Source: a virus
Lineage: Duplodnaviria > Heunggongvirae > Uroviricota > Caudoviricetes
IMG/VR virus record: IMGVR_UViG_3300013288_000004
Location: 1 to 63,359 of that record
Length of the DNA stretch: 63,359 nucleotides
Strand: one strand, 5' to 3'
Numbering within the stretch: position 1 is the stretch's first letter; the number at the start of each line of letters is the position of its first letter. Shown here piece after piece: positions 28,021 to 50,093 of the stretch. Both the position numbers and the translations under genes were made by a program. Below the pieces are notes generated by a model that was not told the origin of the DNA, searched no databases, and saw only the letters and a program-made list of their open reading frames with translations.

Positions 28021-28879
28021 TATTATATTTGTTACATGTATATACGATGGATATAATGGTACTATATTTGGAGGAAGAAAGAGTAGAAAAACATATTATA
28101 TGGAATCATTAAAAAGTATATGCAATATTGGTCACACTATATATTGTTTTACATCCGAAAATCTTTATGACGAATTGTCCTCACATTTTTCACAATTTAA
28201 TAACTTGATTCTTATAAAAAAAGAATTAACGGAATTTTGGTTTTCTAATAGTATATTAGAAATAAAAAATGAGAAACCTGATTTGTTTGTGTCGCCGATT
28301 TTTTGGAAAGATAGAAATTGTCACATCATGTGGGGTAAAACTGAAATGTTAAAAATAATCATGAAGAAAGAAAATCCAAATTATATTTTTTGGATTGATG
28401 CAGGTCTTTCATCTGATCAACTTTTCCCGCATGAATATTTTCCCAATCCTAAAAATAGAAATTATTCCGTTGGAATCTTTAATAATTATTTTATTATGGA
28501 AATTATAAAACATATCAAGAACAGAATAATATCCATACATCACACAGTCCCGAATAATAGACCACTCCCAGAAAAATACTATAATATTACTTCAAATAGA
28601 CGAACACACGCAATGTTAGGAGGTTTTTTCGGAGGCAGAGTAGAGCATATGGATATTTTTTGTTGCGTATGCACATCTAAAATTTTAGATATAATCAATA
28701 ACAAAGAATTATTTTCTGAAGAATCTATCTATTCCACTATAGTACACGAAAATGAAAACATATTTAGAATACAAATGTTTGATTCATTTTATCATAAAGA
28801 TTGGGGAAATCGTTATAATGAAAATAGAAAACCGTTCAGTGATTGTTTTAAACAATTCATAAAAAATGAACAGACTTAA
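27983..28879 (+). CDS. HtrL/YibB-family glycosyltransferase
   Basis: FVTCIY, YIFWIDAG, GGFFGG, SEESI; likely GTG start at 28007. Confidence 0.78.
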   Translation: MKNVRGYAVKNNNIIFVTCIYDGYNGTIFGGRKSRKTYYMESLKSICNIGHTIYCFTSENLYDELSSHFSQFNNLILIKKELTEFWFSNSILEIKNEKPDLFVSPIFWKDRNCHIMWGKTEMLKIIMKKENPNYIFWIDAGLSSDQLFPHEYFPNPKNRNYSVGIFNNYFIMEIIKHIKNRIISIHHTVPNNRPLPEKYYNITSNRRTHAMLGGFFGGRVEHMDIFCCVCTSKILDIINNKELFSEESIYSTIVHENENIFRIQMFDSFYHKDWGNRYNENRKPFSDCFKQFIKNEQT

Positions 28880-29032
28880 GATTAATTTTATACCCTCTGA
28901 TAATTTTGGAGATGCGTTAAATCAATACATCCTATTTAAGAAAGGAATCCCTTTTCACTATTGTCACCATGAAATAGAAAATAAGATAACTCTGGTAGGC
29001 AGTACACTAACAGTTAGTTAAAATATGTCTTT

Positions 29033-30289
29033 TTATACCAAATGACAAACAACGCCACTGGAAACAGATTTTAACCTCAACGAAACGCCTTCAAAATTTT
29101 GAAGGCGAAAAAGCTTTCGATAACTGAGTTTCGTTCGCTTTTTGAACCAATCATATAAATTTATCCACGAAACATCATCGATCTCAAAACCTAACATTTC
29201 CTTCCAACGGGTAGTTATGGCTTTTAAATCAACTTCAGGAAAATTTGTAACTGATTGATTTGTAAGGAATTGTCGCGCTCTTCGCGACAATTCCATTGCT
29301 GCTGCTATTGAATCATATTCTTCGGGCTGCGTCAAGCAGCCCACAAAAGATGAATAAAAAGCAGGTATTTCTTTGTACTTTATTCCATTTATGTTACATT
29401 TTTTTACAAGATTTTGTACTAATTTTGATCTGTTCCAGCTATTGTTCACAAGTCGGTTGAAGTTCTTGCCCTTTTTATGATCTTTTGACTTCATATTCAA
29501 ATCTTCAAAAGCTATCAATTCCACTCTGTGATGGCGCGCAAGCGCCACAATTCTAGAGTTGATCTCACATGTCTCATGTAACTTTTTGTTTTTATTAGTA
29601 ATTTTGTTCAAAATGGAAAGATCAATGATCTCTTTGTAACGGATTGTCTGGTTGTCCATGACAACCAGACCAATGTAATTTGGGTTCATGTCAAATGATA
29701 GAATTCTATTTTTTATAGGCTTGCGCGTGCTGGCATCCGCCAGCACAGCCTCATCAAAAATCACAATGACTTCATTTCTAAGGATTTCTAATGAAAAACA
29801 TGCCTTTTTGTCTTCGCATAAATCTTGCAGGCGGCGCAAAGCGCCTAGCCTGCGATCATTTTTAAGATCAATTTCATAGATCAAACCGCAACGCGGTTTG
29901 AAAATGATTTTTTGATTTAAAAGATCAAATGATGCCTTGCGATTGCCTGCGGCATCGCAAGATGATCCTCTTAGATAAATCGAAGGATTTCTCTTTTTAT
30001 CCCATTCTGTCTTGTTTTCTGTCTTTTTGTATTTTAATCTTTCGAAAAGCTTACGACCACCAAATACAACTTTCTCTTTGTTTTTCAATGACTTAGCTGA
30101 ATTTACAGCCATCTTTACAAAAGATGCATCCAATAAATCTATATTAATCAACAATTTGCAGGCTTTCTCTATTTCTGTGACAGATTTTTCTTCAATCCAT
30201 CGGTTGTGCGCGAAGCGCACAACATTGTTGAATTGCTTAAAATAATCTTCCGGAATGGAATGAGAGCACGCAAGCTTATAAGAGATCAC
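29033..30289 (-). CDS. tnpB: TnpB RNA-guided nuclease, IS607-associated type
   Basis: N-terminal QFNNVVRFAHNR; RuvC-I SFDMNPNYIG, RuvC-II AFEDL, RuvC-III YDSIAAA; no CxxC Zn finger. Confidence 0.9.
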   Translation of the reverse strand: MISYKLACSHSIPEDYFKQFNNVVRFAHNRWIEEKSVTEIEKACKLLINIDLLDASFVKMAVNSAKSLKNKEKVVFGGRKLFERLKYKKTENKTEWDKKRNPSIYLRGSSCDAAGNRKASFDLLNQKIIFKPRCGLIYEIDLKNDRRLGALRRLQDLCEDKKACFSLEILRNEVIVIFDEAVLADASTRKPIKNRILSFDMNPNYIGLVVMDNQTIRYKEIIDLSILNKITNKNKKLHETCEINSRIVALARHHRVELIAFEDLNMKSKDHKKGKNFNRLVNNSWNRSKLVQNLVKKCNINGIKYKEIPAFYSSFVGCLTQPEEYDSIAAAMELSRRARQFLTNQSVTNFPEVDLKAITTRWKEMLGFEIDDVSWINLYDWFKKRTKLSYRKLFRLQNFEGVSLRLKSVSSGVVCHLV

Positions 30290-30450
30290 TGGTCAGGTTT
30301 CTCTTTCTGTTTGATCTTTGCGTCTTCTGGCACCAAAATCGTGCCAGAAGCCGTCTGGATGGCCCCCTCAATCATTCCAGAATGGAACCACGTCTGTGCT
30401 GTTCTGTAACTGATGTCCATCTTTTCAGCAAACTTCTTTAATTTAATCAT
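30286..30450 (-). CDS. tnpA: IS607 TnpA N-terminal MerR-like HTH only (54 aa, no serine-recombinase domain)
   Basis: Manual translation MIKLKKFAEKMDISYRTAQTWFHSGMIEGAIQTASGTILVPEDAKIKQKEKPDQ*; GTGA overlap with the tnpB start; absent from the ORF track. Confidence 0.85.
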   Translation of the reverse strand: MIKLKKFAEKMDISYRTAQTWFHSGMIEGAIQTASGTILVPEDAKIKQKEKPDQ

Positions 30451-30489
30451 TTCTTCATCTCTTTTATCTATTTAGCAGAGATGAAGAAA
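30450..30489 (-). promoter_or_regulatory. 13-bp hairpin covering the tnpA-HTH initiation region, with a late-promoter core in the loop
   Basis: Minus strand reads TTTCTTCATCTCT-GCTAAATAGATAAA-AGAGATGAAGAAA(TG); the last stem base is the A of ATG. Confidence 0.75.
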
Positions 30490-30521
30490 AACGTGCAACT
30501 TTTTTGGTTTCTTGTCATGGA

Positions 30522-30551
30522 TTGACAAGAAACAACATAAAATGCTATAGT
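30522..30551 (+). promoter_or_regulatory. Outward-facing sigma70-like promoter in the IS end
   Basis: TTGACA-18 nt-TATAGT with a TGn extended -10; overlaps the inverted repeat GTTTCTTGTCA/TGACAAGAAAC (30507-30533). Confidence 0.55.
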
Positions 30552-31299
30552 TTCTTATGACTAGTTAGAACACATCACTTGTGTAAAAATACTCATGTTT
30601 TTGGAAATGGTGTTATATCTAGTGCGCAAAAAATGCGTGAAGGTCTCGTCTATCATGTAATAAGAGGACCATTGACCAAGAATGTATTAGAATCTACTGG
30701 AATTAATGTAGGTAATGTTACATATGGTGATCCGGCTCTTTTGCTCCCAACTATTTATAATAATAAATCCATAAAAAAACAATATAAATTAGGAATTATT
30801 CCACATCAAATAGAATATAATGATATGGTTAACTTTATAAATGAGCATAAATCTAATTTCGCTAACACAATAGTATTAAACGCTACTACACCAACGGCAA
30901 TATCTATGGAAAACTTTATAGACCAAATACTTAGTTGTGAAAAAATAATATCTTCCAGCTTGCACGGAATAATAACATCGCACGCATATAGAGTACCAGC
31001 GATTTGGTTAAAATTTTCTGATAAATTATGGGGAGATGGTATAAAATTCAGAGATTATTTCGCTAGTGTTGGTGTTGAGGACATTTCACCAATTACAATG
31101 ATCAATAGTGAAAATGTATCAATTGATAATTATATACCAACATTAGATATAAGAAATATAGAAAATAATATGCCTTGGAATGTACAATTTCCAGAATGTT
31201 TTTACGCCGATGATACAGATCCAGAGTTTAATATAAAAACAAATATGATAAAAAATCCAATTCGATCTAAAGATTATTGGAACACTTTCTCAGAAGAAT

Positions 31300-31764
31300 T
31301 TAGTAATTATCAATCAAATAATTGTAAAATGTAAATGCATCAGTATCCCAATCTGTACATTTTCTAATTAATGAATTGACACAATAATCTCTATCGGGGT
31401 CAATATCCGAAATACTTCCAATATTATGATCTTGAAATTCAGAAGACACCCTAACTTCCATGGAACGAATGGAACCCATCGCAGATGGCGTATAAATCAT
31501 GGAACCATATTTATTGCCCACAGTATAAATTGTTGGTAATGTTTTTTCCAAATCACATATATTGTGTATATTGTTTTCGTCTTTGAAAAATAAAGCTAGA
31601 CGAATGTTAGCTTTTATTTTGTTTTTGTAAAATTGGTGAACAGCTAAAGCCACCATTCCAGAGTTTCCACCAGATAGGTCTTTGTTCATTTGTGAAAGAA
31701 TCTTATAAATTCTATTCATCGTGTTGGTCTGGTGGCCCTCTTCCAATATGTCAGCCATGTTCAT
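31300..31764 (-). CDS. Hypothetical protein (N-terminus ADILEE)
   Basis: 154-aa ORF coupled to the upstream virion gene. Confidence 0.55.
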   Translation of the reverse strand: MNMADILEEGHQTNTMNRIYKILSQMNKDLSGGNSGMVALAVHQFYKNKIKANIRLALFFKDENNIHNICDLEKTLPTIYTVGNKYGSMIYTPSAMGSIRSMEVRVSSEFQDHNIGSISDIDPDRDYCVNSLIRKCTDWDTDAFTFYNYLIDNY

Positions 31765-33891: not shown

Positions 33892-34671
33892 ATGAGCATT
33901 GATAGAATATCATTTGTGGGTGTGGATAATAGAACAAATTTCAGCGAGTTGAAGAGACTCGCTGAAATTTCTATGGTCAAATTAGAATTTGGCGTATTAT
34001 ATAGTGAGACCAAAAAGGATAATCGTTACCCAGATGGACTAGTAATCGATAATTTGTCATCTTATGTGAATGGACAATTGCCATATTCTACTTCTTTACA
34101 TTTGTGTGGTACTAGTGTTCAGAAATTTCTTTCATATGACAGAGAATTTTTATCTAACCTTCTCCATTATGAAATTGATGACGGGGTGTATCAAAATGAA
34201 TTTGATGCCGTGCAGTTAAACTTTGTATTAAAGCCTGAACAAAACATTGAAAAGTTGGTACATGATGCTGTAAGATCATGTTGGTTGTTGGGGATAAGAG
34301 ACCTAATATTTCAAGCAAATAAATCAAAAACTAAGCTTGTGCAATATCTACAAGATTTAGACCCTGAAACATATAAGGATGATGTAAATATCAGATTATT
34401 GTTTGACGGGTCCGGTGGTTTTGGGAGAGAAATTTCAAATATCGAAAAACCGTTTAAAAACTTCTACACTGGATACGCTGGTGGAATCAAACCAGAAAAT
34501 ATACATGATATAGCATATAAAGTAGAAATAGAATCTGGCGCAACTCCTGTATACTTAGATATGGAATCTGGCGTTAGAGAAGATAACTGGCTATCCATAA
34601 ATAAATGCGAAAAAATAATCGAATGTGTAAATAAATTGAAACAAAATAATGTATGGGAAACTGTAGAATGA
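33892..34671 (+). CDS. TIM-barrel protein, phosphoribosylanthranilate-isomerase-like
   Basis: LEFGVLYS, SLHLCG, LLFDGSGGFG, GYAGGIKPENI, LDMESGVR. Confidence 0.75.
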   Translation: MSIDRISFVGVDNRTNFSELKRLAEISMVKLEFGVLYSETKKDNRYPDGLVIDNLSSYVNGQLPYSTSLHLCGTSVQKFLSYDREFLSNLLHYEIDDGVYQNEFDAVQLNFVLKPEQNIEKLVHDAVRSCWLLGIRDLIFQANKSKTKLVQYLQDLDPETYKDDVNIRLLFDGSGGFGREISNIEKPFKNFYTGYAGGIKPENIHDIAYKVEIESGATPVYLDMESGVREDNWLSINKCEKIIECVNKLKQNNVWETVE

Positions 34672-36617
34672 CAGAAGTAGTAAATGAATTTGATAATAAT
34701 TATATCGATCTTTGTAAGAAGATCATAAATCAAGGTTTCGTTCAACAAAACCAACGAACAAAGAAGCGGTGTGCAACCATATTTGGAGATTATAGAGAAT
34801 ATGATTTGAGCACTGGCAAATTTCCATTATTAACTACAAAGCAAATGGACATCAAGCCAATTGCTGCTGAACTGTTAGGTTTCATTCGTGGTTATACAAA
34901 CGCTGCCGATTTTAGAAAAGCCGGATGTAAAATTTGGGATGCTAATGCAAACAAAACTCAAGCGTGGTTGGACAATCCTAACCGTAAAGGTGAGGATGAC
35001 TTAGGGCGTATCTATGGCGCTCAGGCGAGAGATTGGCGTAAGCCTGATGGAACATCCGTAGATCAGTTAAAATCTGTTGTAGAGCGTCTGAATAAGCGTA
35101 GTGATGATCGTAGACTGATAGTTACTCATTGGAATCCGGGGGAGTTGGATCAAATGGCATTGCCGCCGTGTTTTAAAGCTGGTACTTTAGTTTTAACAAA
35201 AAACGGATATAAAAAAATTGAAGATATTACAAAAGAAGATCAAGTTTTTTGTGACGATGGATCTTGGGATAATGTCACAGAAATATTTAAAACTCCTTAT
35301 GAAAAATCTCTTAGAGAAATAAAACTTAGATATATTTCCGATAAAATATATTCAACGAGTAACCATCCATTTTTAATCAAAGATAAAGGATATATTGAAA
35401 TCAAAGATGTTGATAAAAGCGATTTCTTTGCGATTAAAAAATTTGTATCAAAAAATATAGTACCAGAATTTATATTGAATGTTGCTAAACATTGTAAATT
35501 TGTAGAATCTGACAAATTAAAATTAATAAATGTATCAGATGATAAGAATATTAGGACATATAAGTTAACTTTAACAGAAGATGATATGTATACGCTTGGT
35601 TACTTCGTTGGAGATGGATGGTATACAAAAAAATCTAAAAACCGAATAAGTTTTGCTATAGCAAATAAAGACGTTGATAATATATTACCAAAAATAAGAA
35701 AAACAATAAAAATTTCCATTAAAAATGATAAAAGAACCGCGAATAATGCTGTTAGAACTTACGAGACAAAAAGTTTATTGTGGTCTAATGTAGTAGAACA
35801 ATTTGGTCATAAAGCATTTGGAAAAAAAATACCACAATGGGTTCTAGACTCTCCCAAAGAATTCCGAGAACATTTTTTAAATGGTTATTTTTCTGCTGAT
35901 GGTAATTTTCAAGCTAAAAATAGAGAATTAAAACAGTTTGTAACAACTTCAAGAGAGTTGGCTCTTGGTATACAAATTCTTGGTAGTTCATTAAATCAAT
36001 TTTATGCAATACAGGAAAGCATAAGACATCCTACATGTATTATTCAGGGGCGAACAGTAAATCAGAGAAATTTCTTCACTTTAAGAGAAATCAATCTTTG
36101 TAATAATAAATACTTAGAAGTTGACGAAGATTTTTTCTGGATTAAAAATGAATATATAATAGAGTCAGAATCAACTGATTTCGTATATAATTTTTCAACT
36201 AGAAGAACTCATAGTTACAGTGTAAATAACATTATTACTCATAATTGTCACATGACGTATATGTTTGGTATAGAGAGCGATAAATTACATTTATCTATGG
36301 TGCAGCGCAGCATGGACGCGCCACTTGGCTGCCCATACAACATAGCATCATATTCATTACTTCTACTGTTAATGTGTAGAATAACTGGGTTACGACCCGG
36401 AAAATTCTGCCATTTTGCATGGAATGCGCATATATATCAAGATCAAATGGACGGCATTATACACCAAATAACAAGACAACCATATCCGGCCCCATCTATA
36501 TGGATTGATGAACGTATTAAGAGTCTAGAAGATTTAGAAACATGGGTAACTACAGACTGCTTTAAGATGATTGATTATCAACATCATCCAAAAATTGTCT
36601 TTCCATTCTCGGAGTAA
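34668..36617 (+). CDS. thyA: Thymidylate synthase containing an intein
   Basis: FPLLTTK, IWDANA, DLGRIYGAQ, DRRLIV..WNP, MALPP|intein|CH, QRSMD..LG.PYNIASY, AHIY. Confidence 0.96.
   Translation: MTEVVNEFDNNYIDLCKKIINQGFVQQNQRTKKRCATIFGDYREYDLSTGKFPLLTTKQMDIKPIAAELLGFIRGYTNAADFRKAGCKIWDANANKTQAWLDNPNRKGEDDLGRIYGAQARDWRKPDGTSVDQLKSVVERLNKRSDDRRLIVTHWNPGELDQMALPPCFKAGTLVLTKNGYKKIEDITKEDQVFCDDGSWDNVTEIFKTPYEKSLREIKLRYISDKIYSTSNHPFLIKDKGYIEIKDVDKSDFFAIKKFVSKNIVPEFILNVAKHCKFVESDKLKLINVSDDKNIRTYKLTLTEDDMYTLGYFVGDGWYTKKSKNRISFAIANKDVDNILPKIRKTIKISIKNDKRTANNAVRTYETKSLLWSNVVEQFGHKAFGKKIPQWVLDSPKEFREHFLNGYFSADGNFQAKNRELKQFVTTSRELALGIQILGSSLNQFYAIQESIRHPTCIIQGRTVNQRNFFTLREINLCNNKYLEVDEDFFWIKNEYIIESESTDFVYNFSTRRTHSYSVNNIITHNCHMTYMFGIESDKLHLSMVQRSMDAPLGCPYNIASYSLLLLLMCRITGLRPGKFCHFAWNAHIYQDQMDGIIHQITRQPYPAPSIWIDERIKSLEDLETWVTTDCFKMIDYQHHPKIVFPFSE
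35169..36245 (+). mobile_element. Intein (359 aa) with a LAGLIDADG homing endonuclease, inserted at the ThyA catalytic Cys
   Basis: Block A CFKAGTLV, block B TSNHPF, endonuclease motifs LGYFVGDG and FLNGYFSADG, terminal ITHN followed by Cys. Confidence 0.95.
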
Positions 36618-50014: not shown

Positions 50015-50086
50015 GCGGGTGTAGCTCAGTGGTAGAGCGGAACTTTGCCAAAGTTCAGGTCGCCGGTCCAATCCCGGCCACCCGCT
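50015..50086 (+). tRNA. tRNA-Gly(GCC), non-canonical T-loop, CCA not encoded
   Basis: Acceptor GCGGGTG/CACCCGC with U73; D-arm GCTC/GAGC; anticodon arm GAACT-TTGCCAA-AGTTC; T-arm GCCGG-TCCAATC-CCGGC; TAAATA at 50001. Confidence 0.92.
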
Positions 50087-50093
50087 CAAATGT

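Follow-up and report, generated by a model that had tools for sequence, protein, structure and literature searches.

An IS607-like, non-autonomous element with a retained helix-turn-helix gene and a predicted late promoter in a T4-like jumbo phage

Results

The element and its borders

We analysed a window of 63,359 nucleotides (nt), namely the whole stretch taken from IMG/VR record IMGVR_UViG_3300013288_000004, which is the first 63 kb of a phage genome of 306,759 bp, and focused on a TnpB-encoding element of 1,560 bp on its minus strand (29010..30569, -; all coordinates without another prefix are those of the window). The phage encodes a T4-type major head protein (phrog_138, E 7e-88) and a gp55-type late sigma factor (phrog_234, E 3e-25), and the whole stretch is present in four sequencing runs from bioreactor sludge, which may be where it comes from. 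The element carries two genes. The upstream one (30286..30450, -) encodes a protein of 54 amino acids (aa) that corresponds to the helix-turn-helix (HTH) N-terminus of an IS607 TnpA and nothing else, and the downstream one (29033..30289, -) encodes a TnpB of 418 aa whose GTG start overlaps the HTH stop at GTGA, as an original prediction made from the letters of this DNA had described. Our best reading of the locus is a non-autonomous IS607-like element in a T4-like jumbo phage.

The ends of the element were set by relatives that have other flanks. At the right end, the ten aligned relatives all close with AAC(T/G)GT and the sequence beyond it varies. Ahead of the left end there is a GTGT target motif (30570..30573, -), the predicted target-adjacent motif (TAM), whose GT matches the GT closing the right end. 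GTGT precedes the left end in the focal copy and in six relatives (L001, L003, L021, L009, L083 and L050), GAGT takes its place in L052, and the left junction of L002 does not fit the motif. The tip of the left end (30561..30569, -) consists of two variable bases, which differ among copies of one family, followed by TAACTAG, and the left ends of the relatives likewise show GTGT, two variable bases and then TAACTA or a similar sequence. By analogy, the variable bases resemble the left-end dinucleotide of CboIStron, which originates from the donor (10.1101/2023.11.20.567912). The junctions share a short core only, with neither terminal inverted repeats nor any further target-site duplication, as is typical of IS607.

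On the opposite strand, the insertion divides a gene for a polysaccharide pyruvyl transferase into two parts. The 5' half (28866..29009, +) is 90% identical to the N-terminus of the intact protein P0117, and the 3' half (30570..31334, +; PF04230) is 71-72% identical to it. Joined together, both halves give 302 codons in frame and match P0117, a protein of 294 aa in which GSTLTHHL spans the insertion site; thus, empty alleles of the host gene exist. At the DNA level, the flank-to-flank joint of an empty site is absent from the contigs of the four runs and no viral contig encodes a close relative of the host gene, the intact allele being known as protein P0117 only. Regarding the circular intermediate of IS607, no circle joint was found among the contigs of the four runs that cover the whole element. 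We also considered a group I intron (IStron), which was ruled out on two grounds: element and host gene are read in opposite directions, and the Rfam search gave no intron.

The HTH-only gene and its dispersal

The HTH protein matches the model NF033518 weakly over residues 5-43 (E 0.018) and a profile of TnpA N-termini with an E of 7e-21. The serine-recombinase domain that marks an IS607 TnpA is absent, so that the HTH stands alone in the focal element, and it is present in the closest relative (L001), where tnpA has a premature stop.

Contigs of four other studies (X6, X7, X9 and X11/X12) span the HTH-tnpB junction without a joint at around 5-11% divergence. Those of X6 and X11/X12 extend to the left tip and then continue into different flanks, and X7 has an identical left end at another site; runs X11 and X12 are labelled RNA, were flagged as probably DNA and served, as contigs, as sequence variants only. 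Since the same junction occurs with different flanks, these sequences argue that the HTH-only form is a dispersed family that has moved. An intact host allele agrees with the homing idea. The occurrence of the element at different sites means, however, that it behaves as a non-autonomous transposon and not solely as a site-bound homing gene.

Of the 38 differences listed for the HTH gene, 9 alter the protein and the other 29 are silent, against an expected silent share of 19% (p 4e-14), and 28 of the 34 changed positions are third codon positions. The crude ratio of amino-acid to silent change (pN/pS) is 0.07, which is an underestimate, because paired one-base gaps hide some amino-acid changes and only listed differences enter the count. 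From this bias in codon changes we conclude that the HTH is under purifying selection and is not a decaying stub, since a leader kept for coupling alone would not give it. The HTH copies may nevertheless have diverged before the recombinase domain was deleted, if the deletion arose more than once. The selection strengthens the original proposal that the HTH remnant is an autoregulator.

The same genome has two more elements in which an HTH-only gene accompanies TnpB (C1:134341 and C1:260684). The first of these, at C1:134341 (-), has a sister HTH with 63% identity and a similar end point, coupled to a classical zinc-finger TnpB of another family, which suggests, from sequence comparison, that a promoter-HTH module has been swapped between nucleases. 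Record LR756500 has an unrelated 54-aa HTH ahead of TnpB. The HTH-only form is a minority, found in 5 of 99 family loci, two of which are stubs of 36-37 aa; a full TnpA is present in 26 loci and neither of them in 68. A search with the HTH gave two weak loci and one other protein cluster only, and exact left-end patterns occurred, among the viral contigs, only in those of L002 and L001. In the case of L002 (L002:1340-3051) both ends are intact, but GC-rich cargo replaces the interior and joins directly onto the 3' half of tnpB. The cargo comprises a short open reading frame (ORF) and, as judged by eye, a DNA methyltransferase-like ORF. It may have arisen by gene capture, or the assembly may be chimeric.

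Two motifs near the left end are candidate binding sites for the HTH. A 17-bp subterminal motif (30537..30553, -) is inverted with respect to 29020-29036 at the right end, with 13/17 matches, and may be a TnpA/HTH site; it has 15/17 matches in L001 and 13/17 in L002. An A-tract-flanked motif (30488..30504, -), located around 25-40 nt ahead of the predicted late start, is a putative HTH operator that is retained in L002 and visible in the loose end of X9.

A predicted late promoter in the loop of a stem over the start region

Upstream of the HTH gene there is a perfect 13-bp inverted repeat with a 14-nt loop, which agrees with the original description. The 5' arm lies at 30477..30489 (-) and the 3' arm at 30450..30462 (-), the latter comprising the 12 nt ahead of the start codon and ending at the A of ATG. 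Its folding energy is -16.7 kcal/mol, with a z of -3.4, and none of 200 shuffled sequences was equally stable. It covers the initiation region; a strong Shine-Dalgarno sequence is absent from it, which corrects the original description of a hairpin that occludes the ribosome-binding site.

The loop contains CTAAATA (30469..30475, -), a predicted gp55 late promoter according to motif statistics, with a start near 30463 predicted by analogy with T4. TAAATA is the dominant upstream motif of the phage, occurring 20-39 nt ahead of ATG in 71 sense and 16 antisense cases for 307 ORFs; CTAAATA, originally named as the phage late-promoter core, is a minor variant and not the T4 consensus TATAAATA. In the 77 genes with TAAATA 20-45 nt upstream, the preceding base is A in 64 and C in 7. 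The variant is itself enriched (7 sense and 1 antisense occurrences, 0.6 expected), and the loose end of X9 has the common ATAAATA in place of CTAAATA. Considering these motif counts, CTAAATA in the loop is likely a late promoter, perhaps a weaker one.

In silico, the start region can be opened at a cost of 0.2 kcal/mol in the predicted late RNA, compared with 13.4 kcal/mol in the read-through RNA, and the focal gene ranks 2 of 78 late-motif genes for occlusion of the start region. In the folding model, then, a transcript must begin upstream for the stem to occlude its start region. The stem is identical in X7, and the differences listed for X6, X11 and X12 include no change in it. A tiny upstream ORF, Met-Lys-Lys, whose stop overlaps the start codon, is also found here (30459-30448, -) and is not retained in L002. 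The leader of the element at C1:117803 has a six-codon upstream ORF that begins near the predicted +1 and whose stop again overlaps the start codon.

An outward promoter of sigma70 type, TTGACA-18-TATAGT with a TG extension, is predicted on the other strand (30522..30551, +; 11/12 consensus matches), and that of L002 has 12/12 matches and a changed spacer. Such outward matches were found in 21 of 95 family loci, with 4.6 expected and 8 inward; the 150-nt windows used for this count may include flanking promoters, and the shuffling preserved base composition only. Such a promoter could work against read-through early in infection, or it could supply transcripts of the 3' half of a split gene.

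Spread of the layout

The genome contains five IS607-type elements, two with a full TnpA (C1:117803 and C1:148770) and three HTH-only (the focal one, C1:134341 and C1:260684). All five carry TAAATAGAT, versus 3 of 73 other late-motif genes, and their first genes rank 2, 11, 13, 14 and 17 of 78 for the difference between long and late transcripts (p 0.001). In the element at C1:117803, the Shine-Dalgarno sequence is covered by a stem of 11 bp. From one of the five elements to the next the sequence of the stem arms changes, and the pairing persists. Some genes of the phage itself, among them those for baseplate gp25 and terminase and HNH genes, have ranks for this layout that fall between those of the elements. 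Thus, it cannot be taken as the mark of a transposase-less homing element, as had been proposed, because two elements with a full TnpA and several phage genes share it. Gene 25 was dropped as a positive control for the stem score, since the two papers on T4 disagree: it is among the repressed genes in PMC2988022, whereas its stem is described as enhancing in PMC3014915. The strongest late-promoter-in-stem layout of the genome belongs to a gene of 384 aa (L235, C1:198174, -), with 23.5 vs 1.0 kcal/mol.

We looked for the layout in other viral IS607 copies: of 313 tnpA loci found, the best 80 were taken, and 75 of these were unique. TAAATA stands exactly 11 nt ahead of ATG in 9 of these 75, a number that reached at most 4 in 2,000 shuffles. 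In the family of the focal TnpB, 13 of 94 unique loci have TAAATA at -11/-12, judged by eye, including the closest relative L001. This TAAATA-N5-ATG layout predicts leaderless late RNAs. Many other viral IS607 and family copies look leaderless with sigma70-type boxes.

As a bacterial control we sampled 601 genomes of two phyla, which held few IS607 copies; one genome was unscored and 17 of 23 loci had readable upstream DNA. TAAATA is present in 1 of the 12 randomly drawn copies (5 genomes), where no enclosing stem was seen by eye, and this is a small control. The other five loci, of which four have TAAATA, include fragmented assemblies chosen for this TnpB family, which are maybe phage contigs. 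Given the spread of TAAATA among viral copies and the rarity of the stem, we conclude that these elements have broadly adapted to phages by using late promoters and that the stem is one local solution.

TnpB and its predicted guide RNA

The RuvC acidic triad of TnpB is intact, as originally noted: D200, E262 and D326 are invariant in the 40 aligned homologs (of 113 found). The protein has no zinc finger and has a C-terminal extension. It matches the NCBIfam TnpB models weakly (E 8e-6, below every cut-off), and its structure model (pLDDT 87) has Cas12f, Cas12k and TnpB as best PDB matches (E 2e-8 and up). Alignment and model together indicate a RuvC-fold nuclease with a D-E-D triad. A sequence search of the PDB with the TnpB profile gave a single match, which was spurious. 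Among the records that match the lineage, 22 are from phages and none is from a plasmid, so by these matches it is phage-rich.

Between the last base of the tnpB stop codon and the element end we measured 23 nt, not 20 as first given. Therefore, a guide scaffold would have to overlap tnpB, and a putative omegaRNA scaffold is placed over its 3' end (29010..29240, -). The last 146 nt of the element fold at z -2.4. In the three close copies available for covariation, none of 73 pairs shows a compensatory change, and no Rfam family was matched at gathering score, with one sub-threshold chance match. The predicted guide of 20 nt, TAGTGTACTGCCTACCAGAG, lies in the flank (28990..29009, -), antisense to the 5' half of the host gene. 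The original prediction of guide and TAM, also on the minus strand, was one base off: since the ten right ends close in the same way and vary thereafter, the guide should start at 29009 (TAGTG...), one base earlier, and the predicted motif ends with GTGT and not GTGTT. No second site consisting of TGT plus the seed was found in the phage genome at up to 2 mismatches in 12.

Two further observations concern the sequence of this region. GCGC/CGCG words are around four times commoner inside the element (29266-30220) than in the genome (15 vs 3.6 expected) and often form small palindromes within tnpB. Elsewhere in the genome (L242), exact 17-nt and 15-nt copies of the right-end tip (C1:177948-177964, +, and 178036-178050, -) face each other 71 nt apart between two convergent genes, forming one long hairpin.

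Other features of the window

Three features away from the element were recorded. A thymidylate synthase-like ORF of 654 aa (34653-36617) appears, by eye, to carry an intein that holds an endonuclease domain. There is a single tRNA-Gly(GCC) gene (50015-50087). Five TAACTGT matches with 12-nt spacing (around 100-180, -) form a short tandem repeat at the contig start.

Discussion

Proposed mechanism

On balance, and with moderate confidence, we favour a non-autonomous IS607-like element that is expressed only late, restrained by its HTH, and spread by RNA-guided cutting together with a borrowed transposase. The starting point is observed: the element occupies a GTGT site within one of the phage's own genes, and the same HTH-tnpB junction is found at other sites. 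A full-length TnpA supplied in trans would have moved it. On a transcript from upstream, folding and motif statistics suggest that the 13-bp stem would cover the HTH start, silencing the coupled tnpB too, whereas the gp55 transcript from the loop, without the 5' arm, would be translated. Further protection may come from the outward sigma70 promoter, which would be active early and directed away from tnpB. The conserved HTH would bind the left-end motifs beside the late promoter, limiting expression, and may hinder excision. As in other TnpBs, the guide RNA would consist of the gene's own 3' end plus the flank, and the nuclease would cut GTGT-adjacent empty sites in excised or co-infecting genomes, where recombination would copy the element in.

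Several results weigh against this picture. Regarding the HTH, a pN/pS of 0.07 is too low and P0115 is just 78% identical; moreover, TnpA dimerises through its catalytic domain (PMC6188088), so an isolated HTH may bind weakly. The full TnpAs of this genome share no ends with the focal element in a BLAST of the ends. As for the promoter and the stem, the focal promoter belongs to the minor C variant (7/77), and the full stem is not conserved: it is down to 7 bp in L002, which is a decayed copy, and to 8 bp in X9, with no compensatory changes seen among close copies. Nor does the stem recur in the other viral IS607 copies: 8 of the 75 have TAAATA 20-45 nt upstream, and none of these eight has an enclosing stem longer than 7 bp. 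Finally, element and host gene are antisense to each other, the closest same-strand gene upstream has a late motif of its own, and no source of early read-through was found, upstream sigma70 matches being at chance (15 vs 12.5 expected).

A broader proposal, which we put forward only tentatively, is that TnpA has been repeatedly trimmed to a kept repressor domain in large T4-like phages, and that this domain, a gp55 promoter within a stem that blocks the start, and an early promoter pointing outward jointly give a minimal, self-limiting, late-only RNA-guided homing element in which every control layer of T4 I-TevI is reproduced by unrelated parts.

Alternative explanations

The strongest rival, although we consider it rather unlikely, is that the stem is ordinary insulation of an insertion sequence from whatever transcription comes in, inherited from a full-length ancestor, that the late promoter is merely the one that functions in this phage, that TnpB serves retention after excision more than spread between phages, and that no feature of the locus is specific to homing. 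Fold-back is known from IS10 and IS50. In IS200, a stem sequesters the start, and a terminator guards the element against transcription arriving from outside (PMC4513863). In this phage, both full-TnpA elements share the motif, one of them has its own stem over the Shine-Dalgarno sequence, and the baseplate, terminase and HNH genes rank equally high. Actually, insulation fits the stem equally well. Nevertheless, it does not account for an HTH selected without its catalytic domain, nor for a RuvC triad that is intact in the 68 of 99 family loci with neither TnpA nor HTH.

A second explanation, which strikes us as improbable, keeps the selected HTH and gives it a job other than repression: it would block or assist TnpA in trans (as an excision guard or an Xis-like helper) or be a partner of TnpB, and the inverted repeat would maybe be its DNA site. 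Purifying selection shows just that the HTH protein matters, TnpA binds end motifs through its HTH domain (PMC6188088), the subterminal motif is present at both ends, and the nearest Atlas clusters to the HTH are 57-aa HTH_17-like proteins. The conserved A-tract-flanked motif directly upstream of the late promoter speaks for repression instead, as do the small repressors documented in IS605 elements (10.64898/2026.09.24.754181), and stem arms that vary among the five elements while pairing persists fit an RNA role better than a protein site. Our best guess, by analogy with Arc of IS605, is that the HTH is a repressor of the left end, the excision guard being its main rival.

A decaying, poorly expressed remnant, locked off by its stem and with a promoter two bases short of TATAAATA, would agree with the sister element (GCTATAAATAGAT against GCTAAATAGAT here) and with the decayed state of L001 (tnpA stop) and L002 (foreign cargo), but it is very improbable, as the C variant is enriched ahead of phage genes and common to dispersed copies, both ORFs are intact, the HTH changes are mostly silent and an identical left end exists elsewhere (X7).

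Comparison with known systems

In the IS607 family (IS607, IS1535, CboIStron and ISXfa1) a serine-recombinase TnpA is accompanied by an RNA-guided TnpB, the activity of which has been reported (10.1101/2023.11.20.567912). The focal element resembles the family in the N-terminal HTH type, the coupled tnpB with its RuvC triad, the lack of target duplication, the short motif common to target and right end, the inverted candidate motifs at the ends, and the full TnpA of 26 of 99 loci of its own family. It differs in the missing recombinase domain, in the phage late promoter, in junctions of GT/GTGT instead of GG/TGGG, and in a TnpB below all NCBIfam cut-offs that is without zinc finger and C-terminally extended. 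As neither the recombinase domain nor the GG ends are found, we class it as an IS607-like derivative, not as a full member.

The timing layout recalls T4. For I-TevI, I-TevII, I-TevIII, segB, Aeh1 mobE and gene e, the late RNA starts too far downstream to include the 5' arm of the stem that covers the initiation region (PMC2988022, PMC3014915), and the predicted late promoter is placed alike here. Our phage has a late sigma factor and the matching motif, in its C variant at the focal element. Unlike in T4, the nuclease is RNA-guided and belongs to a transposon, and its gene is gated indirectly, through its coupling to an HTH gene upstream that lies behind the stem. Moreover, the promoter is a minor variant, the Shine-Dalgarno sequence is weak, no early transcript was identified, and any autorepression would be the work of a protein other than the nuclease.

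For Arc, an accessory protein of IS605 with a ribbon-helix-helix fold, repression has been shown (10.64898/2026.09.24.754181). Both are small element-encoded DNA-binding proteins proposed to repress a tnpA/tnpB promoter, but the focal HTH is a cut-down transposase domain and its repression is putative. TnpB elements mostly without TnpA, ISCaje1-4, were described in the T4-like Campylobacter phages CP220/CPt10 (PMC2853527), and the available text of that paper names neither a late promoter nor regulation. The TnpB of ISCaje4 is a 30% homolog of ours; its TnpA remnant, however, is the C-terminal part and not the HTH. In plasmids, a TnpB gene drive by IS200/IS605 elements was demonstrated by experiment (PMC11870625): the guide records the insertion site and element-free replicons are cut, as is predicted here from the DNA alone. 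Our literature searches, outside which most subscription journals lay, found no phage-to-phage TnpB drive and no report of late-promoter control of a phage TnpB or of a selected HTH-only TnpA, and the accessible part of a 2026 review of OMEGA homing (PMC13565253) does not contain the whole word 'late'. The kept HTH is the most distinctive part of the element. Each part has precedent, and the promoter-stem layout is general in this phage.

Significance

Homing by TnpB has been shown in bacterial chromosomes and among plasmids, and TnpB-only elements of T4-like phages are already in print. The focal TnpB is compact and zinc-finger-less, its predicted GTGT motif departs from the GG rule of IS607, and all the parts of the system are testable in E. 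coli. If the proposed mechanism is true, RNA-guided nucleases would have arrived by convergence at the same control of timing as protein-only homing endonucleases, while a fragment of a transposase would have been turned into a repressor, in parallel to Arc in IS605.

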